A stretch of DNA of 54,754 nucleotides. It comes from Candidatus Aenigmatarchaeota archaeon (GTDB lineage: Archaea > Aenigmatarchaeota > Aenigmatarchaeia > JACPZZ01). Shown here in pieces: positions 2,543-18,529 of this stretch (the first letter of the stretch is position 1; each line of letters opens with the position of its first letter). The stretch lies in the NCBI GenBank assembly GCA_016177205.1, contig JACOVS010000039.1:1-54754 (forward strand). The letters run 5' to 3'. The translations under genes were made by a program, and so were the position numbers. A model generated the notes under the pieces. The model worked only from the letters and a program-made list of their open reading frames with translations. It was not told the DNA's origin and searched no databases.

Positions 2543-3856
2543 TTACTTTGCGCTCGTCCTTATCTCGATTTGTGCCATGGCGGCATACTCGTATTCGCCG
2601 AAATCGTAGTTCAAAACCTTCACGTAATAGGTGTTTCCTTTGGCAAGGTCAAAGAAACAGCTTTCCGCTGCCGGGCCCGAGGCGCCTCTGTAACAGATTG
2701 CCGAAGCTTGCACCCCGCCGTCAGAACCGCACACATCACGGCTGCCCGCCGCCGCGCTGTAAACGGTGAAATCCATGTCGGCGTAATAATTGGCGCCGCC
2801 CACCGGCTTTTTGGCCGGGCCCACAGTAACATTCGCACGCAACGCCTCGCTCCCGGAATAACTAAAGTTGTAATAACCCGCCTCGCCCCTTGCTAGGCTG
2901 CAACTGTCCGACAAGACCGCACCCGCGGACGCAGAACCCATATAAAACGCGTTGTCGCATCTTGTGTAGCAAGTCTTGGATGTGGTCGATGTGGCCGCTG
3001 TGGTGGTTGTTGTAGTCGTTGTTGTAGCCCTGACATTGGTGGTTGTGGTTGCTCCGACATTGGTGGTTGTGGTAGATCTTCCCGATGTCGTTGTTGTTAT
3101 TGATCCTGTGCCGGCTGAACCGCCTGTTGTGGTCGTTGTGGTTGATGGTGTAGTGCCGATAACGCTGCCGAAGACTTGTCCGCCGCTAAATTCTATGTCA
3201 CAGCGCTCACTGACATAAACATAGTAGCCGACGCCGCTGCTAAACCGGTCTATCGCAGGCCGGCCTTTGTGCGAGAATGTGGATTGCCAGCTGTCACTAG
3301 GATCTTGGTATGTTGAATTCCAGTGCCACGGCGGGACTGTGTTGTAATTCACCTTGCTGCCACAGGTTTTTTGCAGGTCGCTCATGCCGAATTCGCGGTC
3401 GGACGCGATAAACGATCCGCTAATAGGATTGCTTATCATATTCCAGCCCGGCCACAAGGTCAGCCGCCCTGAATTGGATCTCTGCTCCCCTGTTTGCGTA
3501 ACCGTGCATGTGTCGTCCGCCCACACCCAATAACCCTTGCCCGGTTCAAGGCTGGTAAAATCTCCGGCCCTGTCGCTCTGCCATTGCTGCGTGAAACCAT
3601 TAAAGTGCCAGACCGGTTTTGCCGAGTTCCTTTTACAATTGGAATAAATAGAACCCGGCTCGCTCGCGGATCCGATCGGGATTGGTGTGCCCGTGGGCGA
3701 AGAAATCATGTTCCAGCCTGTTCTAAGTGTTAGATGCACCGTAGGTTCCGGTCCAGGAGGGGTCGGCTGGGCCAATGCCGTTACGGACGCAAAAAGAAAT
3801 GTTAAGAGGTAACAGAACAAAAACAGGTGCGATTTTATGAAAGGCCTGTTTTTCAT
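2543..3856 (-). CDS. secreted protein: Sec-type signal peptide, two GWNMIS-containing repeats, Thr-rich linker, C-terminal pre-peptidase (PPC)-like domain
   Basis: N-terminal hydrophobic signal ending ALAQP. Repeated LRTGWNMISSP / LWPGWNMISNP and GKGYWVW-type motifs. About 60-aa poly-Thr tract. C-terminal YYNFSY...DMDFTVY...YYVKV pattern. Confidence 0.7.
   Translation of the reverse strand: MKNRPFIKSHLFLFCYLLTFLFASVTALAQPTPPGPEPTVHLTLRTGWNMISSPTGTPIPIGSASEPGSIYSNCKRNSAKPVWHFNGFTQQWQSDRAGDFTSLEPGKGYWVWADDTCTVTQTGEQRSNSGRLTLWPGWNMISNPISGSFIASDREFGMSDLQKTCGSKVNYNTVPPWHWNSTYQDPSDSWQSTFSHKGRPAIDRFSSGVGYYVYVSERCDIEFSGGQVFGSVIGTTPSTTTTTTGGSAGTGSITTTTSGRSTTTTNVGATTTTNVRATTTTTTTTTAATSTTSKTCYTRCDNAFYMGSASAGAVLSDSCSLARGEAGYYNFSYSGSEALRANVTVGPAKKPVGGANYYADMDFTVYSAAAGSRDVCGSDGGVQASAICYRGASGPAAESCFFDLAKGNTYYVKVLNYDFGEYEYAAMAQIEIRTSAK
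2976..3165 (-). repeat. low-complexity Thr-codon tract with a 24-nt tandem duplication (gacattggtggttgtggt at 3032..3049 and 3056..3073)
   Basis: Direct reading of the sequence. It encodes TTTTNVGATTTTNVRA inside the poly-Thr linker of the 437-aa protein. Confidence 0.8.
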
Positions 3857-3889
3857 CGTTTGGCAATTCTCCTTTGATTATTATCCGTA

Positions 3890-4285
3890 TCAGGTGATTC
3901 CAGGCGGCGGACTAGGCGGCCCGCCCGGTGGTGAAGTCGTCGTAGTCGCTGCCGAAGCAACTCCGGGACAACCGCACCCGATTTTGACTTTTAACTTCTC
4001 GTCAGCGTCACCGCACGGCGTCGCATCGCCCGCATCAAGAACTATTCCCTTTGCCGCAGCACAAAGGCTTGAAGACGGGTCTCCGCTACAGCCTGTGTTG
4101 ACTAAAACCTGGCATTGTTTGTTAAATTCCGCCCTGGCCGCCTGGTTCGTCGCAAATGGGTTCCAGACGCCCATAAATACAGCAACGACAGCGATCAGAA
4201 TAATCACCGCGATCGCTAGAATAACAAGCATGTCAATGGGGAGCGAAACGCCTTTTTTGGTTGAGCTTTTTCCTAAAAAGGTCAT
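3890..4285 (-). CDS. type IV pilin-like protein (class III signal peptide), Cys-rich, Thr/Pro-rich tail
   Basis: N-terminus KKG|VSLPIDMLVILAIAVIILIAVVAVF. 6 Cys in the ectodomain. GCGCPG motif followed by TTTTSPPGGPPSPPPG. Confidence 0.75.
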   Translation of the reverse strand: MTFLGKSSTKKGVSLPIDMLVILAIAVIILIAVVAVFMGVWNPFATNQAARAEFNKQCQVLVNTGCSGDPSSSLCAAAKGIVLDAGDATPCGDADEKLKVKIGCGCPGVASAATTTTSPPGGPPSPPPGIT

Positions 4286-4289
4286 ATTA

Positions 4290-4586
4290 TCATCCCGGGC
4301 AGCCGCAGCCCTTCTTCACGGCAAGCCTGTCCGCGTCTGTGTCGCACGTCGCCTTGTTAAGAACAAGGCCGTTTGCCGCTGCACACAAAGCTGTCGAAGG
4401 GTTTCCCGCGCAACCCGTGTTGACCAAAACCTGGCACTCCTTGTTGAAATTGGCCCGCGCCTGCTGGTTCGTAGCGAACGGGTTCCAGACGCCCATGAAC
4501 ACGGCAACAACCGCTATCAGAATAATTACGGCTATCGCCAGGATTACAAGCATGTCGATTGGAAGTGAAACGCCTTTTCTCTTCAT
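4290..4586 (-). CDS. type IV pilin-like protein (class III signal peptide); candidate major pilin
   Basis: MKRKG|VSLPIDMLVILAIAVIILIAVVAVF. 98 aa, 6 Cys, ends GCGCPG. It has its own TATA-like box and an AAGGT upstream. Confidence 0.8.
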   Translation of the reverse strand: MKRKGVSLPIDMLVILAIAVIILIAVVAVFMGVWNPFATNQQARANFNKECQVLVNTGCAGNPSTALCAAANGLVLNKATCDTDADRLAVKKGCGCPG

Positions 4587-4618
4587 TTTGACCTTATTAT
4601 CTATTTTCTCCGAAATGG

Positions 4619-4632: not shown

Positions 4633-5961
4633 TCAGACAGGCTGCAAACCAGCAGGCAGGGAACAGGCGGCTGCATTGTTCTTCAATTCTGTGGAAACGA
4701 CCTGGCCGTTCTTTATTATTGTGCAGCTGTGCGTCATATAATTGAATTTTAACGTCTCGTAAGGAAACGGCTTGGCAACGCTAGGTATGTTGTTAATAGT
4801 CTTCGACGGGACAAAGCCGCCCGGGTCTTCGGACGAGTATTTCCCGTACACGTCGGCCAGGAATGTAAACGTTATTGATTTTGTCTTTGTGGTGCCGGAA
4901 CAGGTTTGGGTTTTTGTATCTTCTCCGGGCACGCACACGCAGTTCTCAACCACTTCCCCGTCAGCGTCGGTTATTGTGGTGCAGCTTTCCGTCTTGCACG
5001 GGTTTGTGAAATTGTAGTTGCAGCTGAACGAACAGGAGCCCGTGGCCAGGGTCGCGTCGCTTAACGCGTACCCGGCCCCGTTGGTCAAAGAACCGTGCTT
5101 TTCAAACTTCGCATTAAACGCTGCAAATGGGACGCCCGGTATAGGCCCGGAAATAGGAACGCTGTCCAATGCGGAATAGTCTGTCATTGCCAAAACCTCG
5201 GACGCCGTCGGCTCGGACGCCTCCGAAAGCGGGCAGGCGCTGCTAAAGGGGTCTGCAGAATTGCAGAATGAAACAGGCTCTGTGCATTTTGGCGCGAGTT
5301 TTGTTTTTGTACCTCCGGTGTTGATAGAAGCGAATGCTTCATTTATCCTGTCAACCGGTTCGCCGCTGTCCAGAAATTGTTTCGCAGCATTGTACAGCGC
5401 GAAATATTTTAATTTCACTTCCTGGTCTATGTAGCCTTTCACGTCCGTAACTATAGTTATTGCCTGTGTTTGCAGGGCCTTTGAAATTTTTACCTCCTTG
5501 TCGCCTTTAACGTAAAACTTTTCAGATTTTGAAAAGTCGCTGTTGTCCGGGACGACTTGGATGTTCGTATCCCCGTAATCGATTGCCAGGAATTTTCCAG
5601 CTATGGAATGTTGCTGTAAACTGGCGATTTCGTTATCGATGTAACGTTTCAGCGTATCCTTTATAGTATCTTCGCTCGGCGGTGTTTTCCATATAGCTGT
5701 TCCGTCCTTCTGCGGTGCCAAATTGTCCAGACCGCCGGCTGAACCGGCTCTCATGGGTCCTGTCTGGGAATAAATTAAAACCGCCTCTTCCAGCGTTTTC
5801 CGTGCCAGTTCAGCGTAGTTTATGGTTGAAAAGCTCTCCTTGTGCCTTTCGGAAACGATAAAAGCCTCTGATGGTATGACCGACCTAAACCACCAAATTA
5901 TTCCGACGCCGATCATTACCATTATGATGCTTCCCATGAACGTGTTGACGCTTCCTTTCAT
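4633..5961 (-). CDS. pilus-associated protein with prepilin-like N-terminus and a large Cys-rich ectodomain
   Basis: MKG|SVNTFMGSIIMVMIGVGIIWWF. 442 aa, about 12 Cys clustered in the C-terminal half. The start lies 1 nt after the stop of the upstream gene. Confidence 0.7.
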   Translation of the reverse strand: MKGSVNTFMGSIIMVMIGVGIIWWFRSVIPSEAFIVSERHKESFSTINYAELARKTLEEAVLIYSQTGPMRAGSAGGLDNLAPQKDGTAIWKTPPSEDTIKDTLKRYIDNEIASLQQHSIAGKFLAIDYGDTNIQVVPDNSDFSKSEKFYVKGDKEVKISKALQTQAITIVTDVKGYIDQEVKLKYFALYNAAKQFLDSGEPVDRINEAFASINTGGTKTKLAPKCTEPVSFCNSADPFSSACPLSEASEPTASEVLAMTDYSALDSVPISGPIPGVPFAAFNAKFEKHGSLTNGAGYALSDATLATGSCSFSCNYNFTNPCKTESCTTITDADGEVVENCVCVPGEDTKTQTCSGTTKTKSITFTFLADVYGKYSSEDPGGFVPSKTINNIPSVAKPFPYETLKFNYMTHSCTIIKNGQVVSTELKNNAAACSLPAGLQPV

Positions 5962-5962: not shown

Positions 5963-6544
5963 TTATTTCACCGTCGAATACAGCCTGTAAATCGCGATCT
6001 TGCAGCCCGCGCACGTCTCGTAAGGCAGGTAAAACTCAACTTCCGCCGTCTCCGGATCGTTTACGATTTTTTCGTCGTTCCTTTTTGCTATTACCAGCCT
6101 TTTCGTTATCACGTTTCCCGCGACGTCAAACTGCTTCCTTAGCTCGAATATGTACGGGCCCTGGACCAATTTGTCAAAAACATTCTGCGCCTCCTGGTAC
6201 ACGTTCCGCAGGCTGCCGTCTGCTAAAACTTCCCCGTCCCAGTTCGGACTTCCGTCCCACTGGAACGCGGCGTTCGATAATATTCTCCTGCTCTGCGGTT
6301 CATTGGCGCTTAATCTGATCTCAGTCCCTGAAACAAGGGCGTTTTCCGTGTTCAGCGAAAAATCCAAAAACGTGGCGTGCACGGTAAAATCTATCAAATT
6401 GCCGACGATCAGCCGCGCAATGCTCATCGAGAACAGCATTATCATGGTCACAAAAAATATCGTTATCAGGAAAAAGAACGTTGATACGTACCAGACGTCG
6501 CCCTTCATCATTCTCTTTTGGTTGAGCTTTTTGGAAAAGGTCAT
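5963..6544 (-). CDS. pilus-associated protein with prepilin-like N-terminus
   Basis: KRMMKG|DVWYVSTFFFLITIFFVTMIMLF. 193 aa. Tightly packed in the operon. Confidence 0.65.
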   Translation of the reverse strand: MTFSKKLNQKRMMKGDVWYVSTFFFLITIFFVTMIMLFSMSIARLIVGNLIDFTVHATFLDFSLNTENALVSGTEIRLSANEPQSRRILSNAAFQWDGSPNWDGEVLADGSLRNVYQEAQNVFDKLVQGPYIFELRKQFDVAGNVITKRLVIAKRNDEKIVNDPETAEVEFYLPYETCAGCKIAIYRLYSTVK

Positions 6545-6545: not shown

Positions 6546-6986
6546 TCAACCGACCTTCGGGACGTAAACTTTCATCGTGCCGGGTATTATCGTATCCGTC
6601 ATTTTTACCGCAACCGGATGCTCCCAAACCCTGTTTTTTTCCTTCAGTATCGAGTCGTCGCCGAAAACCCAGCCCTGTGAGTCTGTGGTTATGACCACAA
6701 GGTATTTTGTTATGTCAGCGAAGCCGAATTTTTCCGAGAATGAATCGTTGTTTAAGTTGTTTAGCTTGTCCGTATCAAGCACGCCTTTTCTGTAGTCGGG
6801 CTCTGTTTGTGTTAAAAAGGGCGCGCCTGCCATGTACTGCGAAAATATCAAGTATTCTCGGTCGATCTGTTTTCCGTGTATTTGCAGGCTGAACGATTGA
6901 AACTGCACAAGCGTCGCTAAAATGCCGAGTATGCTCACCACAAGGGCGACAATCTTGATAAAATTTTCGGCAATGAATGTGGACAT
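6546..6986 (-). CDS. N-terminally anchored pilus-locus protein
   Basis: 146 aa with a single N-terminal hydrophobic helix IKIVALVVSILGILATLV. Abuts its neighbours with 0-1 nt gaps. Confidence 0.6.
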   Translation of the reverse strand: MSTFIAENFIKIVALVVSILGILATLVQFQSFSLQIHGKQIDREYLIFSQYMAGAPFLTQTEPDYRKGVLDTDKLNNLNNDSFSEKFGFADITKYLVVITTDSQGWVFGDDSILKEKNRVWEHPVAVKMTDTIIPGTMKVYVPKVG

Positions 6987-7493
6987 CTATTTCACCTGTT
7001 GCTCAACCAAGGTTGTTATTTCGGCGCCTGTTTTTTCCACTCCAGCCTTCCAGTTGTGCTTTTCATCCATTTTCGCGTCAAGGACGTTTATTTCGTTGTC
7101 CGTGGAATGTACCAGGAAAAGTTTTCTGGGAGGTTGTATCTTTACGACCGCCGTGTTCGCCAGGTTAAATATCTCGCGGGTCGAGTCTATGAACATGAAA
7201 TAATTTTCGCCGTCCTTGTCAATTTTTATCCTGTAGGGGTTGGGCGGCATTACAAAGCTTGCCGCGAAATTGTTTCCGGTCATGGCCGCGGCTGCGTGGA
7301 AACCGAACAACGTCTCCGACGCCAGCCGCGCATCGAAATTAAAAACAAACTCCCCCATTGCCGCGCCGGCGGTTACTATGAAAAGGATGCTCATCAGAAG
7401 TATGCCCAATTCTCCCAGGAATATGATAAAATCGCGGACTATGATAATCCCTTTAACCTTTTTAGAAAAAAGCTTAACCAAAAAACCATTCAT
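6987..7493 (-). CDS. pilus-associated protein with prepilin-like N-terminus (start moved to the internal ATG)
   Basis: The ATG at 7493 overlaps the TGA of the upstream 899-aa gene (ATGA). N-terminus is MNGFLVKLFSKKVKG|IIIVRDFIIFLGELGILLMSILFIV. Confidence 0.6.
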   Translation of the reverse strand: MNGFLVKLFSKKVKGIIIVRDFIIFLGELGILLMSILFIVTAGAAMGEFVFNFDARLASETLFGFHAAAAMTGNNFAASFVMPPNPYRIKIDKDGENYFMFIDSTREIFNLANTAVVKIQPPRKLFLVHSTDNEINVLDAKMDEKHNWKAGVEKTGAEITTLVEQQVK

Positions 7494-10192
7494 CAGCTGC
7501 ACCCGCACACGGTTTTGTAATCTTCTCCCGCCGCTTTCGCCAGCTGCCCAAGCGTGCATTTGTTCGCGCCGCAGATCAGCGCGTTCTTTTCAGCGTAATC
7601 AACGCCCGAGCACACGAAATCGCCTGTGCATTGCGCTATGCCGCAGCAGGCCCGCATTGCCAGTTTTGCCGCGTCCTTAGGATTTTTTTCTATGTTACAC
7701 TGCAATATGTTCATGTCAATGTTTTTCAGCGGCTCGAAAGGCCGGAAGGGCCATGTCGTGTCGTACTCGGTCCACATTTCTATGGAGTTGCACGCAGGTT
7801 GCAAGAGCCAGCCGTACACGGCGAGCTTTCCAACGTCCGCTATCACAGAGCACGCCAGCGAGCCGTAAAATCCCGCTGCCATTTCGTTGAACTTGCCCTC
7901 GTCAAAGTAGCAGTAGTTTGAACGCCCTGGTGTTGGGCATTTATCGACGTCTGCGATGACTACAGGCTCGCCGTTCTTGGATCCGTCCTCGTAAAAGCTG
8001 ATTTGCGCCAGGCACGGAGAAACGAGGTGGAACCTTGGATTTTTCTCAAAAGAAAACGCGCCCAACCCAGCCCCGAGGGGCGACGTGAAACCGTCGCGTT
8101 TTAGCTTCAAGTCAACGGCTTTTGAGACAACGTAAACCGTTTCATAATCCTTTATCCGTTCTTCCGCGACGTCCGATTTTCTCTGCTCGACCCCCTTCTG
8201 GTTCAAACACACCGTATTGGATTCGCAGCCCGCGTTTGGCGATTTAAGGTAGCTATACTTCAACTCGTCCTCGACGTCGCTCGCGGCGTAGCCCATGACG
8301 TTCATTTTTATGAATTTGCTTGTCCCCTTTGGGCTCCACCCGTCCAGGCTGTCGTAAATTGCGTACGGCAAAAATTCGTACTCGTCCTTTGCCATCAGCG
8401 CCAGCATTTCCGGCTCCCGTTTCCAGGAAGCGGAAAATTTCGCGATTTCCAGCGCGTCGTCCGCGTCGCCTGTTATGCTGTTGGCCAGTTTCAGCTCGCT
8501 TTCGTAATCGCGCAACAGTCTTTTTCCGTAATTCGGCACGTCGAATTTTTTGTTCACGGATTCTATTACGTCGTCGCCAACACCCGCAGCTTTTAATTCA
8601 GTTATATAACTGCTTCTCAATTTTGACGCGATCGACGCTACGTCTCCGTCAGTTGCTGTTCCGGACAGGAATCTTCCGTAAGCGCCCGACGTAACCCCGG
8701 TTCCTGCGCCGTCCGTGGCTGTTTTCAGAGACGATTCCAAAAACGAGAATATCGCCGTATCCGTCTCCGCGCCCGCGATTATGGCCTTGTCGCTTGCGAA
8801 GAATTTTCCTGTAATAGCGGCCATGCTGTCCGGGTCTGTGATTTGTGTCTCAAGTTTCAGGCCCGCAAACCTCTTTTGTATGTTCTCCGAAATTTCCGGC
8901 AGCAGGTTTCCTTGGTCGTCGAAGAATCTCATGGAGCGGAAAACCGGTATCGCGTCAACGCTCTTGGAAAATCTTTTTATGCCGGTTTGTTCAAAAAATG
9001 AAGTTATCGGCCTGGACGGATAAAGACCGTATCTTGCCGCCATCTTCCGCGAGTTTGCGTCAAAAGATTCTTTCGCCTTTTTCATCGCGCCGTTCATCAG
9101 CCCGTAAAACCCTTTGTCGGCTGTTTCCGAATCCTGGACAATTTTTCTGAAAGTGATTTTTGACAGGTCCGTTATCTCGTTCTGCAGCGCAACATCGGCC
9201 GCTTTGTACGCGAAAAAGCTGTCAAGGTTCCTGCCCATCTGTTTTTCTTCTTCCACTGCGCTACTGCCCAGTTTGTTTATCAAATTTTGCAACTCCGCCC
9301 TTTTCCCGGCAGGAACAACAGCCTTTTGCACCAGCTCCCCGGTTGCCGTATCCTCTGCGTTTACCATCTTCACGGCAAACTGGTCGCCAAGTTCCTCCGC
9401 CAAATCGTCCTGTATCTTTATCACCTCTATCAGCCCGTTGTCGTCCATTGTTTTCAGGAAACCGAGCCCCACGGTTCTACCGAAAATATTCGGCGCGGTT
9501 TTTGCGGTTATCCATTTTTTCGCGGACAGAACAATTTTGTCAACCCCTGTTACCTCGAAAATGAATTTCATCGAGTTTGTGAGCCCTTTTGTAGCGAGCC
9601 CGCCAAGATACTCCACACCCTTTAGCGGAAGGGTTATCGGCGTTGCGATTATCTTTGCGCCTTTTGCAAAATACTCCGCAACCTCGCCCGCCCGGGTCTT
9701 TGAAACTTTGCTGGCTATCTGGCCGCCTATCCCTGAGGCTTTCAGCGACGACAGGGTCCCGCTGAAAAGCGACAGCCCCATGTTTATGCCGATTATCTGG
9801 GCCATGTTTTTCGTGAAAGGATAGCTCTCGTCGAATTTGTACAGCCCTTGCGCCAGGTTTTCCGGCGATTCCGGGAAGTGCTCCCAGTATATCATGTACT
9901 CGGGTGTGGAGAGGGCTCTATAATCTACAGGGTTCAATGTCAGCGGGCTTCCGACCTTGTTCTGGCACAGCATCGCGTACGTCGTATAGGGGCTGTCTTT
10001 TGTGTAAGTGCCTGTAGTCGCAACGGTATCGACGGCGACTTTTATGTTGTTCGCGGTTTTTTTCGCCAGGTCGTCGCAGTAAGGCCCGCCTATCAGCGTG
10101 TAGATGACATAGGCCGTAATGAACAGTATTAGAATTCCGGCAAGAAGGAAGACCTGGTCCTGGCCGAACCCCTTTTTGTGACTTAGCATCAA
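7493..10192 (-). CDS. giant (899 aa) pilin-like / putative adhesin protein with class III-type signal and a Cys-rich C-terminus
   Basis: MMLSHKKG|FGQDQVFLLAGILILFITAYVIYTLI. About 18 Cys, mostly in the last ~250 aa. Ends KTVCGCS. Confidence 0.75.
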   Translation of the reverse strand: MMLSHKKGFGQDQVFLLAGILILFITAYVIYTLIGGPYCDDLAKKTANNIKVAVDTVATTGTYTKDSPYTTYAMLCQNKVGSPLTLNPVDYRALSTPEYMIYWEHFPESPENLAQGLYKFDESYPFTKNMAQIIGINMGLSLFSGTLSSLKASGIGGQIASKVSKTRAGEVAEYFAKGAKIIATPITLPLKGVEYLGGLATKGLTNSMKFIFEVTGVDKIVLSAKKWITAKTAPNIFGRTVGLGFLKTMDDNGLIEVIKIQDDLAEELGDQFAVKMVNAEDTATGELVQKAVVPAGKRAELQNLINKLGSSAVEEEKQMGRNLDSFFAYKAADVALQNEITDLSKITFRKIVQDSETADKGFYGLMNGAMKKAKESFDANSRKMAARYGLYPSRPITSFFEQTGIKRFSKSVDAIPVFRSMRFFDDQGNLLPEISENIQKRFAGLKLETQITDPDSMAAITGKFFASDKAIIAGAETDTAIFSFLESSLKTATDGAGTGVTSGAYGRFLSGTATDGDVASIASKLRSSYITELKAAGVGDDVIESVNKKFDVPNYGKRLLRDYESELKLANSITGDADDALEIAKFSASWKREPEMLALMAKDEYEFLPYAIYDSLDGWSPKGTSKFIKMNVMGYAASDVEDELKYSYLKSPNAGCESNTVCLNQKGVEQRKSDVAEERIKDYETVYVVSKAVDLKLKRDGFTSPLGAGLGAFSFEKNPRFHLVSPCLAQISFYEDGSKNGEPVVIADVDKCPTPGRSNYCYFDEGKFNEMAAGFYGSLACSVIADVGKLAVYGWLLQPACNSIEMWTEYDTTWPFRPFEPLKNIDMNILQCNIEKNPKDAAKLAMRACCGIAQCTGDFVCSGVDYAEKNALICGANKCTLGQLAKAAGEDYKTVCGCS

Positions 10193-11102: not shown

Positions 11103-11297
11103 TCAGCACTGTATCCTTAAACCCTTCATCAGCTGGCACAACGCGTCGCCTATCAACGGGACAGCGTTTAATCCTGCCGGTTTCCCTATCACAGCGACGA
11201 GCAAAACGCCCGCACCCAGGATTATTACCAGGCCGGCGACAACCAGCGCAAGCAGCAGGGGCTTGTCGCCTATCTGTCCCTTACTGGCATTTGCCAT
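11103..11297 (-). CDS. mini pilin-like protein (64 aa)
   Basis: MANASKG|QIGDKPLLLALVVAGLVIILGAGVLLVAVI. 2 Cys. Overlaps the 3' end of the upstream gene by 17 nt. Confidence 0.5.
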   Translation of the reverse strand: MANASKGQIGDKPLLLALVVAGLVIILGAGVLLVAVIGKPAGLNAVPLIGDALCQLMKGLRIQC

Positions 11298-11607
11298 AAT
11301 TCGTACCCCTTATTTCAGACACGCATTTTTTCCCGGCCGCGCAATCCTCGTTGTTGTCTATTCCCTTCCACGCCCTGCACCCGCACTCATTCTTGCCTTC
11401 AACGGTGTGCACGCACGCTTTGTTGTCGGTATTTCCGCAGAAATCCTGTTTTGCCAGGCACCCTGCCGCGGATATTATCTCGTTCCTGTCCCTTTCAACG
11501 TTCTCGCCGCTGCTTTTTATCCAGCCAAGGTAGAGTGCCAGCAATACCAGCGCAATGACCAGCGCCATCATCAACGCGAAATTGTATTCTGACATGCCTT
11601 TCCGCAT
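11281..11607 (-). CDS. type IV pilin-like protein (class III signal peptide)
   Basis: MRKG|MSEYNFALMMALVIALVLLALYLG. 108 aa, 8 Cys. Confidence 0.75.
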   Translation of the reverse strand: MRKGMSEYNFALMMALVIALVLLALYLGWIKSSGENVERDRNEIISAAGCLAKQDFCGNTDNKACVHTVEGKNECGCRAWKGIDNNEDCAAGKKCVSEIRGTNYGKCQ

Positions 11608-11642: not shown

Positions 11643-13193
11643 CTATGGGTTGTTTATGTTGGGGGGCATTACTTTTGTCAGCGAAATATCCTTGAACCCG
11701 TTCCTTCCTTTATCGTCCGCTCTCTCATCAAAGGCGGGAGGCGGGAATTCCTTGCCGTTCGGGTAAAACCATCTAACTGTTCCTGTTCCGTCCGTTACCC
11801 GTATGTTGTCGTAATACGAAACCACTTGCTGGTTGTTGCCGGCGTCGTATCCTATCACAACATCAACGATGTCCACAGCCTTGCCCCATACGCCGGGCGG
11901 CGCGGGTAAAATTCTGTGGTACCATTTTCCGCACGCAAACTCTGTAAGGTCCATACCCGAAGCGTCTGAAACGTCTGGTTTCGCTCTAACCCATTCGTTG
12001 TTTAACCAGTCATACGACCATCTCCAGTACGGAAGGTTGTTCCATTCATTGTACGGGTCAGCCTTGGCCCTTAGTTCTATCCCCCCGACCTCCTTTTCGC
12101 ACGTGCGGAGGAATACGTCATACTCGATAATGTCGCCGGGTCTTATTGTGTACGGCGAATCTATTTCATACGCTTTCAAATACAGCAACTTACCTTCGCC
12201 GGTTGCTGCCAGTTTGAGTATCTCGTCTGAGTGCGCCCCTATATCGCTTTGCGGGCTCGCCTGAGTCGGAGGTACGTACACTACCGGTATGACCATCGCA
12301 CTGGTTTTATCTTGATCGTACCTGCAAGTTCCCCCGCACCCCTCCTTTTCAAGGAGAGCCGAACTTTCTTCGAAAAAGACGTGTTTGTCGCCGTTCGTAG
12401 ATTTTATCACTATGTTATCGTAAAGCGCTGCATAAACAACGCCGCCCTTGGTGTCTTTAGTTTCGTAAGTTTCACCGCCCATTACCAGTGATATCTTCTC
12501 AAGCGTCTTGCCCCCCTTTGGTATAGGCAATACCCTGTGGTACCATTTCCTGTAGGCATAAGGTGTCATATCGCTGTCTTTGGCCGCTTTCGTCGGGTCT
12601 TTATCGCAGTTTTTAAGTGTTCCAACAAGACCCACGCCATCCTTCCAGCTATCATCGTCGTCCATCTTGCCTCCTGTTGTTTCAATGGTTATCCCGCCTG
12701 TACAGGGTGTTTTCAAAGGCAGGTAAACATCATACTCCAGCACATCCCCGTTTTTTATAAGGTACTGGGTTGATCCTCCTATCGGCACGCCTGCTGAAAT
12801 TTTCAGTCGTATTTTATTGCCGCCAGAAGCGCTGGTCGGCGCAATAAAGTGCAACACGTTCCCGCTCGGCCGGCCTACGTAATTAAGCAGTGCCTTGCAC
12901 GCGTCACTTGGTTCGCATTTGTTGTTCTTGCACGTTTCTTCCGTCGAACACAACCTGCCCGACGAGGTTGGCGTAGCTTCGCATAGGGCGCCGCACTGGG
13001 CCGGTGTCGTCGTACCGTCGCCCGAAGAGCCGCTGCTGTCAGGAATTATCTTATTCAGCCACGGAACTTTATTCAAGAAATCCTTGAAAGCGCCGGATGT
13101 ATTCAAACCAACTATAACACCCAGAACAACAAGAAGGACAATAACGCCCAGCGCTAACCCCAAAACGTGCGCGTCCATCCCTTTTCTTGTCAT
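11643..13193 (-). CDS. large pilin-like protein with a Cys-rich stalk and two tandem beta-sandwich-like repeats
   Basis: MTRKG|MDAHVLGLALGVIVLLVVLGVIVG. Internal duplication marked by GDVLEYDVYL/GDIIEYDVFL, KWYHRVLPIP/KWYHRILPAP and LYDNIVI/YYDNIRV. Confidence 0.75.
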   Translation of the reverse strand: MTRKGMDAHVLGLALGVIVLLVVLGVIVGLNTSGAFKDFLNKVPWLNKIIPDSSGSSGDGTTTPAQCGALCEATPTSSGRLCSTEETCKNNKCEPSDACKALLNYVGRPSGNVLHFIAPTSASGGNKIRLKISAGVPIGGSTQYLIKNGDVLEYDVYLPLKTPCTGGITIETTGGKMDDDDSWKDGVGLVGTLKNCDKDPTKAAKDSDMTPYAYRKWYHRVLPIPKGGKTLEKISLVMGGETYETKDTKGGVVYAALYDNIVIKSTNGDKHVFFEESSALLEKEGCGGTCRYDQDKTSAMVIPVVYVPPTQASPQSDIGAHSDEILKLAATGEGKLLYLKAYEIDSPYTIRPGDIIEYDVFLRTCEKEVGGIELRAKADPYNEWNNLPYWRWSYDWLNNEWVRAKPDVSDASGMDLTEFACGKWYHRILPAPPGVWGKAVDIVDVVIGYDAGNNQQVVSYYDNIRVTDGTGTVRWFYPNGKEFPPPAFDERADDKGRNGFKDISLTKVMPPNINNP

Positions 13194-13217: not shown

Positions 13218-13266
13218 TTTTCTTTTTACCTTAAGGGTTTTTCTTTTTTAAAAGAAAAAAGCTTAT
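13218..13266 (-). promoter_or_regulatory. conserved ~48-nt intergenic module, copy 2
   Basis: ttttctttttaccttaagggtttttcttttttaaaagaaaaaagcttat matches copy 1 except for one extra A. Lies between the 67-aa and 516-aa genes. Confidence 0.6.
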
Positions 13267-13466
13267 ATATTACAAATGGCCGACCCGAACCCGCCCATGG
13301 ATGTCGCTAAAAACCCGCATATCCCTTTTCCAACAGTCATCGCAAGCCCGCCCGAACCCGCCTCTTCATTTGCGAACGCTATCACAACAACCAGGACAAC
13401 TATGGCCACGACAACCGCGCCGATGAAAACAAGCATGGCGCTCGTTATGCCTTTTTTATCAGTCAC
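13263..13466 (-). CDS. mini pilin-like protein (67 aa, GTG start)
   Basis: TDKKG|ITSAMLVFIGAVVVAIVVLVVVIAF. 2 Cys. The start overlaps the upstream stop (GTGA). Confidence 0.6.
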   Translation of the reverse strand: MTDKKGITSAMLVFIGAVVVAIVVLVVVIAFANEEAGSGGLAMTVGKGICGFLATSMGGFGSAICNI

Positions 13467-13708
13467 TTAACCACTCCCACCGTGTGCGCATAAAGCCACG
13501 TCGACGCCCTTAGCGGGAAGCAAACGGTTTTATCAACCAGTCCGCCGCCCACGTCGCACGCGTTCGGTATGTTCGCGCCGGATGAAATGCCCTGTAACGC
13601 TATTATAACCGCTATTATCACGGCTAACGCCACTATAGCCAGTATCGCAAGGAAAAAAGTCTTTCCCGCCTCCGCCTCTATCTGCCCCTTCACCATTGCC
13701 GTTTTCAT
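13463..13708 (-). CDS. pilin-like protein (start moved to the ATG at 13708)
   Basis: MKTAMVKG|QIEAEAGKTFFLAILAIVALAVIIAVIIAL. GAAAGGAAAC lies upstream of the ATG. 2 Cys. Confidence 0.6.
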   Translation of the reverse strand: MKTAMVKGQIEAEAGKTFFLAILAIVALAVIIAVIIALQGISSGANIPNACDVGGGLVDKTVCFPLRASTWLYAHTVGVVK

Positions 13709-13753
13709 TTTAATAGTTTCCTTTCCACCAAAGCCCAAGATTTTTCTTTTCCC

Positions 13754-14182
13754 TTATCGCCTGTCCACATCCACTTCTATCAGCGACGCCCCGCCGGTTA
13801 ATGATATTTTGACGTCGTAAACCTTTTTATCAGCGTTTATCGTATCGCCCGTGTATTTCCACGCTAGGTTTTCACAGTCCGTATCCGCGAGCTTGGCCGC
13901 TATTTCCGCAGCTCCGAGAGAACCGGACGTGGATTTGTATTGCGACGTGCTGTCAAAGCCTTTTGCAAAACTGCTTCTCGACTGCCAGAGGCTGCACATG
14001 CCGTACGCTATCCTCGTCGCAAGCACGTCTGCGTTGTCCACGTACAAGTCGCCCGTTTCTGGTAGCTGGTTGAACCTTATCAGCCTTGGCAGTATCAATG
14101 ACGCTACCCCGTATAGCAGGGACGCTACAATGAACGCCGCAACTAGCCAGAACAAAAACCTTGGCTGGTCGGCGGCTGCCAT
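13754..14182 (-). CDS. N-terminally anchored pilus-locus protein
   Basis: 142 aa. N-terminal helix FLFWLVAAFIVASLLYGVASLIL. The ATG overlaps the platform gene stop by 1 nt. Confidence 0.6.
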   Translation of the reverse strand: MAAADQPRFLFWLVAAFIVASLLYGVASLILPRLIRFNQLPETGDLYVDNADVLATRIAYGMCSLWQSRSSFAKGFDSTSQYKSTSGSLGAAEIAAKLADTDCENLAWKYTGDTINADKKVYDVKISLTGGASLIEVDVDRR

Positions 14183-16254
14183 TATAATCCTCCGATTATG
14201 CTGTCTTTTATCTGCGACCCCAGCGTCGAATAAACAACAGTTATCGCCAGCACGTAAACGACCAGCGAAATGAACATGTTAATAGATAGCGTGTGGTAAA
14301 GATTTATCCTGTCCTCGCCCGTTTCAATCTTGCTGACAAAGTACGACAACAATCCGGCGACCTCGATCATGTAGATTCCTACGACCAATTGGAACACCTC
14401 TGCCGTTACCCCGCCCTTGTCAAGCCCGACTGTCAAAAATAACGGCAAACTGGAGCCGACGCCCTGCGCGGTCAGGTCCGCTAATTTTTCTCCGAGAACT
14501 TTGATTATGTCCAGCATTATCAGCGCCATCGTCACCGTCACGCCGGCGACCATCGGTGCAAGGATCGCGCCCAAAAATTTCATGCTTGTCGTGCTCTCGC
14601 CCAGGATATCGCGCAGCTCCTCTTCGATGGCGTGAACGTCTTTAAGGTAACGGGAAATGGACAGCATGGATTGGGATGCGTTGTAAACGCCCTTCCTGAC
14701 CGCTTCCACGACAACCTTCATCACCGAGATTATGAGGCTGGACGGGTAATACCAAACGGCTCCGTAGTTTTTGTCGAATATAGCCTGCTCAAAGGTCATG
14801 CCCAGCCTCTTTATATTTTGAACGATGCGGCCGAAGAAATCGGATATTCCAAGGTCGCGGATTTTTTCCTGGTTCTTATCTATTGCGTTTTCTATCGGCG
14901 TCCCTGACGATAACTGGTTGCCTAAATGGAAAATCGCTTCCGCAAACTCGTTCTCGACGCTTATTACTTTCCTGCGTACGCTTGTTCTCTGGAAACTTTC
15001 CAGGAACGCATAAAGTGACATTGGCAGCGAGATTGATGCGATGATTACAGTCGAGTACATCACGCGCGCAAAAGACGTTGCCGCGCTGTTCGTCATGCCG
15101 CTGTAGCCGATGAAGAAAAGCGCGGCGAAAAGCAGGGCCGGCAGTATGTATGTCCTGATTTCGATTTTTTTGCCCGACAAATGCGCCCGGAAATAGCCTT
15201 CCTTGGGCGTGTCCGGGTGCTCTGAAACGTCCGGTTTCGACAGCGTCGGCGGTTTCGTCGCCAATATGTTTGACGTGTACCAGTACAGCCCTAGGAACAA
15301 GAATACGTCGTACCCGAGGAAAAGCATGTACGGTTGCACTATGTTAGAAAGGAATAACACCAGCACAGGGAACATCACGAGCCCCATTATCGGCAGCAAA
15401 ATCCCCATTGCGTGAATGATCAGCAGCGGCATACGCAAGTTTTGCGCGTAGTGGCCCATCCTCTCCCTTGTTCCTTTCAGTATCACGTCAACGGCCTCGT
15501 CCAGCATTACAAGGCGCTTTTTCTCGGGCTGGTCCACCGAATTCCGTATCAGCGTCAGCGCCGAAGAGAACTCCTCGTTTTCGTTTTTCCACCGCGAACT
15601 GATGTATTTGTCAAGGGCCCTGTCTATGCTGTCCTCCTTTCTCATGTATATGTCCCACAGCAGCTTCCGGAAATCCAAAGCGAGCGGTCCCGTAAGGTTC
15701 GTCGCAACGAATTTGACAGCGTTCTCCAGGTTGGGGGATATTCTCATGGAGATAACCATGTAAACGACCGATAACACGATCTCTTCCGACGCCTTTACGC
15801 GGAAATCGCGCGCTTTTTTTGCCGGATAGCCGTGGATATAAACTCCCGACAGTATGGAAAAAACCAGCATGGTAACGCCGATGAATATCGGCACGGCCCC
15901 AATTGCGGCCGCGGCAACTGAAACCAGGACGAGAAATATCGGCAGAAGGAACGCTGCCGATGTTATACCCGCGGGCGTGCACTGCAAACCGGTGAAGTCT
16001 ATCTCTTTGCGCAACTGCTCTGCGGAGCTCTTCGAAGGCTCGACCTTGAGTATTTTTTCGGAAATGGAACAAAGTTTTTCGTAGATATTCAGTTTCTTCT
16101 TGGCCCCCCTCTCTTCGGTCTTGAAGGTTTTGTAGTCAAGGGACAGGAATTGTTCCTCGCTCCTTTCATCGTCTCCGCTGTCCTCGAAAATCCTGGGTTC
16201 GTAATCGCGCGCTATCCTGTTTAGTTCGTCCTCGTCTATTCGTCTCTCTCCCAT
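14182..16254 (-). CDS. polytopic membrane platform protein (FlaJ/TadC/PilC-like, T2SS F-type)
   Basis: 690 aa. Cytoplasmic N-terminus followed by two blocks of hydrophobic helices separated by a soluble domain. Lies 4 nt downstream of the secretion ATPase. Confidence 0.75.
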   Translation of the reverse strand: MGERRIDEDELNRIARDYEPRIFEDSGDDERSEEQFLSLDYKTFKTEERGAKKKLNIYEKLCSISEKILKVEPSKSSAEQLRKEIDFTGLQCTPAGITSAAFLLPIFLVLVSVAAAAIGAVPIFIGVTMLVFSILSGVYIHGYPAKKARDFRVKASEEIVLSVVYMVISMRISPNLENAVKFVATNLTGPLALDFRKLLWDIYMRKEDSIDRALDKYISSRWKNENEEFSSALTLIRNSVDQPEKKRLVMLDEAVDVILKGTRERMGHYAQNLRMPLLIIHAMGILLPIMGLVMFPVLVLFLSNIVQPYMLFLGYDVFLFLGLYWYTSNILATKPPTLSKPDVSEHPDTPKEGYFRAHLSGKKIEIRTYILPALLFAALFFIGYSGMTNSAATSFARVMYSTVIIASISLPMSLYAFLESFQRTSVRRKVISVENEFAEAIFHLGNQLSSGTPIENAIDKNQEKIRDLGISDFFGRIVQNIKRLGMTFEQAIFDKNYGAVWYYPSSLIISVMKVVVEAVRKGVYNASQSMLSISRYLKDVHAIEEELRDILGESTTSMKFLGAILAPMVAGVTVTMALIMLDIIKVLGEKLADLTAQGVGSSLPLFLTVGLDKGGVTAEVFQLVVGIYMIEVAGLLSYFVSKIETGEDRINLYHTLSINMFISLVVYVLAITVVYSTLGSQIKDSIIGGL

Positions 16255-16258
16255 CGTA

Positions 16259-18529
16259 TCACATGGCCCTAGCCGTTAATCGCACGCGTTCCCTGGCCCT
16301 TGAAGAAAACCACTTGTCCCACCTGGAAAATATTTCCTTCGGGTCCAAATAACCCGTTTCTTCCTTCAGCCTGGACGAGATTATGTGGAACTGTTCATTG
16401 GATTGCATCACCCACGGCGCTTCCATCAATTCGGGCTGGTTAAGTTTTATGGAATAATCCACCATCGCCTTTTTGATGTTGGCGCGCAGCTGTATGTTTT
16501 CCCACACGTCTTCCCAGCGTCCTTCCCACTCCCTTGTTAACGACGCGATGCGGTTTATTATTTCAGATTCTCCTGTTGAAAGTATTTCCGTTGGCTTCAA
16601 TGAATCAGAAGCCGCAGAATATTCCATCAGGTTTACAAACCCTTTCTCTTCGTACGGGTCGGATTTCCAGTGTTTCCTGACCTCTGTTAACTCGGTCACT
16701 CGTCTAAAACGATGCAAACCGTCCGCAGAGCGCAGCATCTTTGATATTACGATTATATCCGTCGCTTTGAAACTTGTTGACGGAACTCCGAGATCATTTA
16801 CGACGCGGTCGTAAACGCCGTAAGGCGACTCGCCGTGTATCGTCCCTGCGACGACGTTGGATAACGCGCCAATACGCATCGCCTCATAGAGTGCGCGGGC
16901 TTCCGTGCTTCGCACTTCTCCCACGATCAAAGAAGAGTCGCCCAACCGCAACGCAGTTCGCAGCGCCTCGTCCGCTGCCATCTCTGTTTCAACGTGTGTT
17001 ATCACGGAACGCGATTTCAACCGTTCAATGTTGTATCCTATTCTTCTCATGTAATCGACGGCAAGTTCAATGGTATCTTCAACGGTTAGGATTCGCTTGT
17101 TCGGTGAGATTTCCAGCATCAGGGCATTTAAAAGTGAAGTTTTGCCGCTGCCTCTTCCGCCTGCAACAAGCATGCTTGACGACCCGTCCACCAAAAAACT
17201 CATCACACCCGCGAACAGGGGGTCTATCATCCCGGATTTTATGAACAACGGAAGCGTCCAGGGTTTATCCCTGTGTCTTCGGAAAGCGAATGCCAAACCC
17301 TCGGGCGACAGTGTTTTTGTGATCGCCGCAACTCTCGCCCTGCCGCCGGGAACGGTTATGTCCGTGTCTAAAACAGGGTTCGCTTCGTCTAAAGGTCTTC
17401 CAGACGCGATTCGGAACCGCGTCGCCCATGACTCGGCGTCGCCCTTTGTCGGTATCAGGTTTGTCGAGCATTCGTTGTAATCTGAATGGTTTATGTAAAT
17501 AGGATTTTGTCCTATCGGCGAGTTGATGTAAATGTCCTGTATCTTCTCGTCGGCCAGTAGGATTTCTAACACGCCGAACCCGGCCGTGTACCTTGTCAGG
17601 ATTTTTGTCATGTTTTCAATCTCCGCAGGGTTCAGAAAAATTCCCATGCTCGTCGACAAGTCCCGTATCATGTCGCGCCCTATGTTGGCGAATATTTCCC
17701 TGGCGCTTTCCGGGTCTGAGAACTCGGTCTCAACAGGCTTGTGCTCTGCCATATAACGCCTCGCAGCGTCCAACAGCATGTACTTGTCCTCTGTTAACTG
17801 GAATTCTGGCGGCACAACATGGTAGACCAGTTCGGATTTCGTCGGTATGCGGTAAACCTCAACTTCGATGTCGCCCACCTTGTACCTATCTATGGCCTGC
17901 CCGTCCTTTGGCGTCGCCGACATGAACCTCGTTAGCATGAAGTTCGGCCTTATGGTAGGATGGAAAATTTCCCGGTAAAGCGTGCGGTCCCCGATGTGGT
18001 AACCGGCAATGTTGTCCTTCACAAGCTGGATTAACGCGGTCGATTCAAGGATCCGCTGTATGGGGGCGAGCGCGTTGTTGACGTAATGGGCGTAGCATTG
18101 TATGTGGTAGGGGTTTTTTTTCGCGTCCATCTTTACTTTCCGTATCTCGCGCAGTACCTCTGCGTACGCCCCTATGGGGTCGCGCCGCATCAGGTCAACA
18201 ACAATCCGCTGCGCGTTGTGGCTTCGTTCCTGTGTGTGGCGGTCGCATTCCGGTATTGTTAAATTCGTCACAGTCAGCAGGCGGCGCCCGCGCACGATCT
18301 CGTCCAACGCGTTCGCGATCTCGGCCAGGAGCCTGGTCTGCTCCCAGTCGTATTCATACTCCCTGGTCTCTGCAAGAATAATGCGGGAGACCTTTTTCAC
18401 CTCGATTATTTTGTCTATGGCCGCGGCCATTATCGCCTCGAAGTCTTCGAGGCTAGACCCGTATAGCGTTCCCAGCGTGTTCAGGCGTATGGAATTGTCC
18501 TCCGGGCTGTAGTCAAACTTGAGAGCCAT
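16259..18529 (-). CDS. type II/IV secretion-family ATPase (FlaI/PilB/VirB11-like)
   Basis: Walker A GGRGSGKTSLLNAL, Walker B-like DSSLIVGEVRSTEA and His-box-like GTIHGESP. 756 aa with a long N-terminal domain. Confidence 0.9.
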   Translation of the reverse strand: MALKFDYSPEDNSIRLNTLGTLYGSSLEDFEAIMAAAIDKIIEVKKVSRIILAETREYEYDWEQTRLLAEIANALDEIVRGRRLLTVTNLTIPECDRHTQERSHNAQRIVVDLMRRDPIGAYAEVLREIRKVKMDAKKNPYHIQCYAHYVNNALAPIQRILESTALIQLVKDNIAGYHIGDRTLYREIFHPTIRPNFMLTRFMSATPKDGQAIDRYKVGDIEVEVYRIPTKSELVYHVVPPEFQLTEDKYMLLDAARRYMAEHKPVETEFSDPESAREIFANIGRDMIRDLSTSMGIFLNPAEIENMTKILTRYTAGFGVLEILLADEKIQDIYINSPIGQNPIYINHSDYNECSTNLIPTKGDAESWATRFRIASGRPLDEANPVLDTDITVPGGRARVAAITKTLSPEGLAFAFRRHRDKPWTLPLFIKSGMIDPLFAGVMSFLVDGSSSMLVAGGRGSGKTSLLNALMLEISPNKRILTVEDTIELAVDYMRRIGYNIERLKSRSVITHVETEMAADEALRTALRLGDSSLIVGEVRSTEARALYEAMRIGALSNVVAGTIHGESPYGVYDRVVNDLGVPSTSFKATDIIVISKMLRSADGLHRFRRVTELTEVRKHWKSDPYEEKGFVNLMEYSAASDSLKPTEILSTGESEIINRIASLTREWEGRWEDVWENIQLRANIKKAMVDYSIKLNQPELMEAPWVMQSNEQFHIISSRLKEETGYLDPKEIFSRWDKWFSSRARERVRLTARAM

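Follow-up and report, generated by a model that had tools for sequence, protein, structure and literature searches.

Loci of System 2 (clade 2), represented by PilB/PilC and PilA of Haloferax volcanii, carry several pilins together with large adhesin-like proteins (bioRxiv 10.64898/2026.04.22.720090; PMC4858521), and pilin-like proteins without the class III signal peptide (SPIII) motif have been described in them (bioRxiv 10.64898/2026.04.22.720090). The Epd pilus of Methanococcus maripaludis, a System 1 machine, is encoded by a locus of 11 genes (bioRxiv 10.64898/2026.04.22.720090; PMC4858521). Among DPANN archaea, type IV pilus (T4P) islands full of unrecognisable pilins have been noted in general terms (Makarova, Wolf & Koonin 2019, PMC6393860, Fig. 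2A), and 'FlaG, FlaI, FlaJ and adjacent archaellum homologs' have been listed for most Aenigmarchaeota metagenome-assembled genomes (MAGs) (PMC8407114). Here we analyse a 54,754-nucleotide stretch from a Candidatus Aenigmatarchaeota archaeon (contig JACOVS010000039.1 of assembly GCA_016177205.1; hereafter the window, 54.7 kb), in which 18 genes at 2543 to 18529 probably encode a non-archaellar archaeal type IV pilus-like (type IV filament, TFF) machine of an uncultured archaeon of the DPANN phylum Aenigmatarchaeota. This reading agrees with PMC6393860 and PMC4858521.

Gene content and organisation of the locus

Eighteen consecutive minus-strand open reading frames (ORFs), numbered here g1 to g18, run from 18529 down to 2543. 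They comprise an ATPase (g1), a polytopic platform protein (g2) and 16 further genes, and the ORF listing confirmed the sizes and coordinates given for all of them in the first-pass annotation of this DNA. From g1 to g18 the intergenic gaps are 4, -1, 15, -4, 69, 35, -17, 5, 33, 119, -67, 0, 1, 1, 46, 4 and 33 nt. The value of -67 comes from an over-long call for g12 as a 190-aa ORF; its start was placed at 7493 because orthologs begin at an internal methionine (MRVLMKG/IVIVRDF, where the slash here and below marks the predicted cleavage site), which leaves a -1 overlap with g11. Once this start is corrected, the gap range of -17 to +119 nt reported at first pass is right; coupling in the operon is tight, neighbouring genes either overlapping by 1 to 17 nt or standing 0 to 119 nt apart. 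On record, the platform is HYS53_02570 and the 899-aa g11 is HYS53_02525, from a 'Candidatus Aenigmarchaeota archaeon' MAG, and the numbering distance between the two tags fits nine genes between them having been annotated too. G+C content is even over the locus (0.49-0.52) and the flanks are housekeeping genes; the locus is therefore chromosomal, with no obvious island, and a mobile or viral island was rejected on the same grounds.

A secretion ATPase and its platform protein

The first gene, g1 (16259..18529, 756 aa), encodes a secretion-superfamily ATPase of the T2SSE/TadA/FlaI family. It matches Pfam T2SSE (PF00437) at 7.8e-20, which exceeds the gathering score, and among NCBIfam models it matches TadA best (3.3e-42), followed by FlaI (2.2e-40), both far under their curated equivalog cut-offs. 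The core occupies residues ~285-625, with an N-terminal extension of ~285 aa and a C-terminal one of ~130 aa, and over this core the PDB matches are GspE of Archaeoglobus fulgidus (afGspE, 2OAP; 3.3e-29), CpaF (1.5e-26) and FlaI of Sulfolobus acidocaldarius (2e-17). All catalytic motifs are intact (Walker A GGRGSGKTS at residues 457-465, Asp box at 480-489, Walker B at 533-540 and His box at 562-568), which, with the T2SSE and TadA/FlaI matches, bears out the initial call of a FlaI/PilB-type ATPase. According to the ORF listing, it is the one ATPase at the locus, and there is no dedicated retraction ATPase.

The second gene, g2 (14182..16254, 690 aa), encodes a T2SSF/TadC/FlaJ-like polytopic platform with ~9 hydrophobic segments. 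Its full-length orthologs, at 37-86% identity, number in the hundreds, and T2SSF (PF00482) is matched by 12 of 20 aligned full-length orthologs (34-86% identity; best 6.6e-10); several homologs are labelled 'TadB' by the Joint Genome Institute (JGI). An AlphaFold2 model of g2 built on the ortholog alignment reached a mean predicted local distance difference test score (pLDDT) of 75.8, and its top Foldseek match in the PDB was the PilC chain of 3JC8, a model of the Myxococcus type IVa pilus machine. When a profile of the 20 orthologs was searched against PDB sequences, only a spurious match to a G-protein-coupled receptor was returned. Membership of g2 in the T2SSF family is supported by this transitive evidence, from orthologs and from the structural match of the model to PilC, and is accepted here on that basis; the missing direct T2SSF match of g2 is a sensitivity failure. 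The first-pass assignment to this family had named a failure to match it as what would speak against it, and while the assignment stands through the relatives and the model, the Pfam match of g2 itself does fail.

Conservation across the phylum

The platform profile was scanned against a genome collection with one genome per species, and 79 loci were kept. The scan gave 353 confirmed stretches of the collection in which the ATPase-platform core is conserved. The kept loci are nearly all labelled Aenigmatarchaeota and include the Ca. Aenigmarchaeum subterraneum single amplified genome and two complete chromosomes. Gene order is the same in the close relatives L001, L004-L008 and L010, whose platforms are 74-86% identical to g2. 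In distant relatives (37-45% platform identity) the ATPase and platform still stand together, and 8-15 genes follow in the same direction, 3-11 of them class-III-like. Conservation of individual pilin sequences falls off fast among the relatives, and rapid sequence divergence is typical of pilins (PMC4858521).

Conservation also reaches across the 5' side of the ATPase gene, beyond the coordinates of the first-pass annotation. Two plus-strand genes that diverge from the locus, at 18555-18989 (144 aa) and 19021-19692 (223 aa), encode soluble coiled-coil proteins, of which the second is rich in P and Q at its N-terminus and faintly matches DUF7310. Of 32 relatives that contain the ATPase and have enough flanking sequence, 29 carry the pair beside it. 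The pair is probably part of the system, as cytoplasmic accessory or regulatory components; a coiled-coil cytoplasmic component has been noted for halobacterial subclade 4F (PMC4858521). Farther out, at 20262-23811 on the minus strand, lie five genes for small, mutually paralogous polytopic membrane proteins (190, 161, 204, 266 and 292 aa) that share the N-terminal motif F[YL]xF[VI][LI]P[WF]L..F.I[VA][FY]G[IV]L and have a weak TgpA_N match as their only family match. Relatives of this family occur upstream of the ATPase in 24/32 ATPase-bearing Aenigmatarchaeota loci, and the family may simply be a conserved neighbour.

A class III signal motif in the downstream proteins

Under the class-III-like rule used here, a protein had to carry [KR][GA] among its first 45 residues and then, no more than 8 residues further on, a stretch of 16 residues with a mean Kyte-Doolittle value of at least 2. 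The background was made up of every other ORF of 60 aa or longer in the six frames of the window, 242 in all. The rule was matched by 12/16 genes downstream of the platform as against 3/242 other ORFs (Fisher exact p = 5.6e-15), and chance clustering of transmembrane (TM) proteins was rejected on the strength of this enrichment. Canonical leaders are found in g4, g5, g6, g7, g8, g10, g11, g12, g14, g15, g16 and g17, with KRKG/VSLPIDMLVIL..., MRKKG/MMAVEL... and HKKG/FGQDQ... as examples. In orthologs the K/R-G is retained while the leaders vary in length and sequence, which is the pattern expected of a peptidase recognition site. Downstream of the platform in relatives, 148 class-III-like ORFs were found, 123 with KG, 16 with KA and 8 with RG.

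The downstream set consists of these 12 canonical proteins, two leaderless pilin-like proteins (g9 and g13), one plain TM-anchored protein (g3) and one secreted protein with a Sec signal (g18). The 12 class III-type N-termini of the first-pass annotation, including those of the 442-, 516- and 899-aa proteins, were all recovered; its total of about 15 pilin-like or anchored proteins mixes these four classes.

Prepilin peptidases in the phylum

No prepilin peptidase was found in the window. A motif scan found no ORF with at least three TM segments and G.[GH]D, and tblastn and hidden Markov model searches from 13 Aenigmatarchaeota A24 peptidases gave no match in the 54.7 kb (best E 0.07 and 0.45). 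Peptidase_A24 was likewise without a match among the 46 window ORFs scanned with Pfam, a set comprising all ORFs taken to be likely genes, to the exclusion of short and antisense ones. A rhomboid-family protein at 38049-38681 on the minus strand (PF01694, 2.2e-37) is the sole intramembrane protease among the scanned ORFs, and it is not an A24 enzyme.

In 13 of the 79 loci, an A24-family protein of ~280 aa with 6-7 TM segments is encoded within 10 kb of the platform, sometimes immediately adjacent to it. Four of these relatives' proteins were tested and match Peptidase_A24 (PF01478) at 1e-6 to 1e-8, over the gathering score. Asp21 and GDGD are both invariant in the Aenigmatarchaeota A24 family, for which 498 homologs were found at E <= 1e-5, many of the source-labelled ones being annotated as Aenigmatarchaeota prepilin peptidase, and JGI labels Aenigmatarchaeota A24 peptidases 'CpaA'. 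Judged by these matches, the phylum has the peptidase, and in this lineage its gene appears to be unlinked to the locus, an arrangement that for PibD/FlaK and pilus loci is the archaeal norm (PMC4858521). The absence of a peptidase reported at first pass holds for the window and is unremarkable, A24 being widespread in the phylum and usually unlinked in archaea. In three relatives whose platform gene stands alone, an A24 prepilin peptidase gene also adjoins or neighbours it, so that the same components are organised differently there (positions L054, 8942-9778; L063, 8563-9303; L033, 19257-20093; all on the minus strand).

A superfamily of small cysteine-rich pilins

The best candidate for a major pilin is g16 (4290..4586), a cysteine-rich protein of 98 aa with a class III N-terminus (KRKG/VSLPIDMLVILAIAVIIL...) and the C-terminal end GCGCPG. 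Its tandem paralog g17 (3890..4285, 131 aa) has a class III N-terminus and a T/P-rich tail. The two proteins are 79% identical and their genes form a DNA repeat (4037-4256 versus 4359-4578, 77%); they are the only obvious paralogs in the downstream set. Three further genes were aligned to the g16 family with hhalign. These are g10 (10312..10635, 107 aa, MRKKG/MMAVEL..., prob 98.3, E 1.2e-14), which aligns over columns 1-63 and so past the helix; g7 (11281..11607, 108 aa, 8 Cys, MRKG/MSEYN..., prob 94.1, E 1.3e-7); and g9 (10669..11097, 142 aa, prob 83.4, E 8.5e-6). Both g10 and g7 have class III N-termini, and g9 is a cysteine-rich pilin-like protein without a K/R-G leader (MPEREINLATVVV...), of which a distant homolog carries MKG/I. 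By these profile alignments g7, g9, g10, g16 and g17 are one superfamily of small cysteine-rich pilins, with g7, g9, g10 and g16 homologous beyond the TM helix.

The g16 family is the most widely conserved pilin, with homologs in the loci of 16 relatives, and it keeps KG/[VIML]SLPI[DN], a fixed cysteine pattern and a C-terminal CGC(P). A PDB match of its profile to a three-finger toxin through 'CGCP' (E 0.11) was set aside as chance and not homology. Cysteine counts are even in all 13 cysteine-containing proteins among g3-g17 (2, 2, 2, 12, 8, 2, 12, 6, 18, 2, 12, 6 and 6; sign test p ~ 1e-4), which points to disulfide-bonded extracellular domains. A C-terminal C-G-C is present in g10, g11 and g16, and internally in g17, and is also kept in distant members of the g16 family. 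The sequences suggest that the pilin heads are disulfide-knotted.

The giant g11 protein and the g11-g15 block

The largest downstream gene, g11 (7493..10192, 899 aa), has a class III N-terminus (HKKG/FGQDQ...), 18 cysteines and the C-terminal end CGCS. A word-seeded search found 15 homologs, and an exhaustive profile search of 1.84e9 representative proteins found 93 clusters at E <= 1e-3, mostly of 650-1100 aa, that match through the N-terminal residues ~1-127 and the cysteine-rich C-terminal residues ~700-825, the centre being unmatched. An AlphaFold2 model based on the 15 homologs has a mean pLDDT of 54.5; its centre (230-610) is mostly helical, at 70-88. Sequence and model together indicate that g11 belongs to a family that is phylum-restricted, pilin-anchored and largely helical, its ends conserved and its middle variable, as would be expected of a specificity determinant. 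One homolog (P0251, a partial sequence of 703 aa that shares 54% identity with g11, on a contig of 2,144 bp) is labelled 'Candidatus Uhrbacteria bacterium' and is probably a mis-binned Aenigmatarchaeota fragment, not a bacterial homolog.

This gene is the first of a conserved five-gene block, g11-g15, whose architecture recurs in the distant relatives L015, L016, L042 and L079. The layout in relatives is a protein of ~700-900 aa, two of ~150, one of ~170-190 and one of ~450-780, and is one of two recurring architectures. In the window the block continues with g12 (6987..7493, KVKG/IIIVRDF..., 168 aa from its probable true start at 7493), a pilin-like protein, and g13 (6546..6986, 146 aa), which is leaderless and pilin-like (MSTFIAENFIK...) and has distant homologs with MKG/Q. 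It is completed by g14 (5963..6544, 193 aa, MMKG/DVWYVS...), which is pilin-like with a class III N-terminus, and g15 (4633..5961, 442 aa, 12 Cys, MKG/SVNTF...), an adhesin candidate with a class III-like N-terminus.

Remaining genes of the locus

Direct Pfam and NCBIfam searches left 14 of the 16 downstream proteins without an assignment. Next to the platform gene, whose stop it overlaps by 1 nt, g3 (13754..14182, 142 aa) encodes a protein that is anchored by an N-terminal TM segment and lacks K/R-G; its N-terminus (DQPRFLFW...LPRLIRFNQLPE) is kept in 9 close relatives, and it is a possible machine accessory. An earlier grouping of g3, g12, g13 and g14 as recent paralogs was dropped, since hhalign shows no relationship among them. 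Three short genes encode pilin-like proteins: g4 (13463..13738, 91 aa, VKG/QIEAEAG..., with KLKG/QIE in orthologs), g5 (13263..13466, 67 aa, DKKG/ITSAMLV...) and g8 (11103..11297, 64 aa, ASKG/QIGDK...), all three with class III N-termini. A second adhesin candidate is g6 (11643..13193, 516 aa), whose class III N-terminus (TRKG/MDAHVLG...) precedes two tandem homologous domains of ~170 aa each (30% identity, E 3e-15), each closed by a YDNI motif; it had no Pfam match, and a PDB sequence search gave nothing meaningful. The last gene, g18 (2543..3856, 437 aa), encodes a secreted protein with a Sec-type signal (..ALA/QP), two tandem domains of ~100 aa (E 8e-8), a Thr-rich linker and a C-terminal domain. 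A search of g18 against the PDB gave nothing meaningful, and a homolog was found in one close relative only (L004), so the gene is regarded as peripheral and its membership of the system as uncertain.

Genes elsewhere in the window

Among the Pfam matches obtained beyond the locus are TFIIB, a ThrRS with an archaea-specific editing domain, the archaeal CCA-adding enzyme, FtsZ, aTrm56 and aIF5A, and tRNA and Rfam scans returned no match. Two adjacent minus-strand genes, at 46070-48094 and 48163-50064, code for large soluble proteins of 674 and 633 aa, neither of which matches Pfam at E <= 0.001. Three minimal-nucleotidyltransferase proteins, one of them a HEPN fusion, are encoded in a housekeeping context at 44104-45228 and 45231-46094 (minus strand) and at 24620-25699 (plus strand); they match the MNT-HEPN family that has been singled out as DPANN-typical (PMC6393860). 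A TnpB/OrfB_IS605 (Cas12f1-like TNB) gene lies at the contig end (53419-54621, plus strand), and a related IS605 TnpB (L001, 15893-17041) is inserted in the pilin cluster of that close relative, between the homologs of g9 and g10. Far from the locus, a stand-alone 183-aa ORF at 42443-42994 on the plus strand has a class-III-like N-terminus (MRKG/VASVVVLVML...) and a C-terminal hydrophobic anchor (...PAWFLLILAVSSALVYLKAG), with no Pfam match and no homolog in the fetched loci.

Comparison with described systems

The best descriptive fit is System 2, although the features in question are not exclusive to it and were compared by description. Like the Haloferax volcanii system, the present locus has an ATPase with a long N-terminus (~285 aa), a single platform gene, multiple pilins that include some without the class III motif, large adhesin-like proteins (442-899 aa) and a peptidase probably encoded elsewhere, and the N-terminus of g16 (KG/VSLPI...) resembles the Pilin_N (PF07790) type. 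That afGspE outscores FlaI as a match to g1 (3e-29 versus 2e-17) is the sole hint on clade 2 placement. The two differ in that neither arCOG02911, the signature minor pilin of System 2, nor its PilA family was recognised here, that the small pilins of this locus have disulfide-rich heads ending in CGC in place of recognisable beta-sandwich heads, and that the accessories (the coiled-coil pair, the g11 family and the g12-g15 block) are lineage-specific.

The Epd pilus resembles this locus in its multi-gene operon, its several minor pilins and its class-III-signal proteins, and the KG/Q type of leader seen in g4 and g8 is common to both. Epd features also include a very short major pilin and class-III-signal proteins with adhesin or lectin-like domains. 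Two platform genes are characteristic of Epd, however, as is a 9-TM class III signal peptidase of its own (arCOG02300) encoded within the locus or close to it; with its one 690-aa platform gene and no such peptidase in the 54.7 kb, the present locus was judged not to be an Epd or System 1 pilus. The Aap and Ups pili of Sulfolobales are likewise non-archaellar: they combine a single ATPase with a single platform, lack an ATPase for retraction and have their PibD peptidase encoded away from the locus, but each has two pilin genes plus AapX or UpsX. As no protein of the AapX type (Fe-S) or UpsX type (immunoglobulin domain) was matched by Pfam in the locus, and as there are ~14 pilin-like genes, identity with Aap or Ups was rejected as well. 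Against these two systems the locus does look unusually expanded, as the first-pass annotation put it, but relatives carry 8-15 downstream genes, which makes a set of this size typical of the phylum, and Epd has 11, and this description, along with the emphasis on a missing peptidase, is the weakest part of that annotation. The bacterial Tad/Flp system is alike in its ATPase (TadA 3.3e-42, CpaF 1.5e-26) and small pilins; it differs in that the present locus has no secretin, outer-membrane parts, TadZ or TadG homologs, has one fused 690-aa platform in place of TadB/TadC, and belongs to an archaeal host with archaeal-type leaders.

The DPANN 'dark matter' islands represent the same phenomenon, a recognisable ATPase and TadC beside many signal-bearing proteins unlike known pilins. 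The gene order has no name as a pilus system, and islands of this general kind had already been noted (PMC6393860). That account is general only and does not describe the conserved modules of this lineage, its distribution across the phylum or the linkage of the peptidase. Machines of this kind are well known; what the literature searched does not describe is the giant g11 family, the conserved modules, the disulfide-rich CGC pilins or the spread across the phylum.

Proposed mechanism and competing interpretations

If the locus is a type IV pilus-like machine, a class III (A24) peptidase encoded elsewhere in the genome would trim the short basic leader after K/R-G, and the hexameric ATPase g1 would power the platform g2, which would draw the pilin-like proteins out of the membrane and polymerise them via their N-terminal hydrophobic helices. 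The disulfide-rich pilins of the g16 superfamily (g16 and g17, perhaps with g10 and g7) would be the likely filament subunits. The translationally coupled g11-g15 block and g6 may supply pilin-like subunits of low abundance that prime the filament or form its tip and whose large variable ectodomains give it binding specificity, and the two upstream coiled-coil proteins are likely cytoplasmic partners of the ATPase. We infer cleavage, filament formation, the identity of the major subunit, the tip roles and adhesive or host-contact function; the last would most likely be adhesion to a surface or a host cell, given the large variable ectodomains and the DPANN lifestyle.

Several observations weigh against this interpretation. 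The pilus system is known here from sequence alone. This genome fragment contains no peptidase, so that processing is a prediction only, and no HYS53_ locus tag is found among the best 120 of the 498 A24 matches. The platform itself matches neither Pfam (T2SSF, E <= 0.1) nor NCBIfam, and the structural match of its model to PilC is weak (E 0.035, prob 0.96, low TM-score). Pilin_N stays under its cut-off of 25.2 bits with g16 (18.0 bits, E 0.0055) and g17 (14.6 bits) and is detected at E <= 0.1 in just 3/14 members of the g16 family, whose profile matches archaeal pilins in the PDB through the hydrophobic helix alone and at non-significant values (E 0.5-7.5); the weak Pilin_N match is likewise confined to the helix. 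The g11 model is of low confidence, with no Foldseek match in the PDB at E <= 0.001, and an adhesin or tip role for this protein is a guess. Finally, no ATPase was detected beside the platform in 14/46 relatives with at least 8 kb of upstream sequence, and the three inspected (L033, L054 and L063) have a stand-alone platform with no adjacent ATPase or pilin genes, which indicates that clustering is not obligatory.

Stand-alone platforms, the lack of a family match for most downstream proteins and the four of 16 that lack K/R-G are what would be expected if unrelated membrane-anchored or Sec-secreted proteins merely lay beside an ATPase/platform pair. This is scarcely plausible in view of the motif enrichment (p 5.6e-15), the retention of the motif in orthologs, the translational coupling that runs through the cluster and the recurrence of the arrangement in relatives at 37-86% platform identity. 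Equally improbable is a reduced archaellum, as the annotation in PMC8407114 implies. The matches of g1 to the FlaI model and to the S. acidocaldarius FlaI structures, together with FlaJ-like platform homologs, favour it, but the FlaI equivalog match reaches 138.9 bits where the cut-off is 550, and both afGspE and CpaF outscore FlaI. No archaellin (PF01917) was matched at E <= 0.1 in the 16 downstream proteins, nor was ArlH (KaiC-like), ArlF/G or ArlCDE/X matched by Pfam anywhere among the scanned ORFs of the window; the locus is not an archaellum.

The machine could also differ from an adhesive pilus in its product or in its use. A bindosome-like or pseudopilus-like assembly would be a short, anchored surface structure that displays binding proteins and forms no long fibre, the ATPase and platform inserting into it many different class-III-signal proteins with large ectodomains (g6, g11 and g15). 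It would account for pilin-like proteins that are unusually diverse and in several cases large (516, 899 and 442 aa) and include no single clearly dominant major pilin; g1 has a weak NCBIfam match to the bindosome ATPase BasE (3.3e-18, far under the cut-off), and functionalised TFF machines have been proposed to be widespread in archaea (bioRxiv 10.64898/2026.04.22.720090). Yet the large proteins match no substrate-binding-protein family, no ABC transporter is encoded nearby, and the conserved and duplicated small-pilin superfamily suits a fibre subunit, so that we regard such an assembly as unlikely. Less likely still is a DNA- or nutrient-uptake (competence-like) pilus that binds and retracts extracellular or host DNA or macromolecules. 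DPANN archaea have reduced biosynthetic capacity, and T4P serve DNA uptake in bacteria, including ultrasmall bacteria of the candidate phyla radiation (CPR), which speaks for such a function; against it, the Pfam scans of the locus and its surroundings showed no ComEC-like channel, no nuclease and no DNA-binding domain, and the locus has one ATPase and none dedicated to retraction. T4P have also been considered in CPR episymbiosis (PMC9894109).

Implications for Aenigmatarchaeota

With a type IV pilus-like machine as the preferred reading, the locus can be described as a conserved core (the ATPase, the platform and the coiled-coil pair) and a fast-evolving set of pilins and adhesins that includes a phylum-restricted giant pilin-like family. 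This corrects the earlier partial-archaellum annotation of these genes, and it makes the 'missing peptidase' a matter of gene location, not of a phylum-level absence of the enzyme. What emerges is a refinement of a known class of machine, with no new principle.

To our knowledge, no host is known for any member of the Aenigmatarchaeota, and host recognition and attachment are largely unresolved among DPANN archaea. We tentatively raise the possibility, which we hold to be doubtful at present, that the cluster is a phylum-wide host-contact apparatus and a distinct TFF subtype with a disulfide-knotted g16 fibre, a g11-g15 tip and the coiled-coil pair. If that were true, the hypervariable centre of g11, a largely helical fold orphan, would set which host cell the ectosymbiont binds, and the g16 fibre, the g11-g15 complex and the coiled-coil pair would be common to no named archaeal pilus system. 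The conserved core and the pilin and adhesin set together offer concrete targets for metatranscriptomics, cryo-electron tomography and heterologous expression, and may serve as a marker of host specificity.

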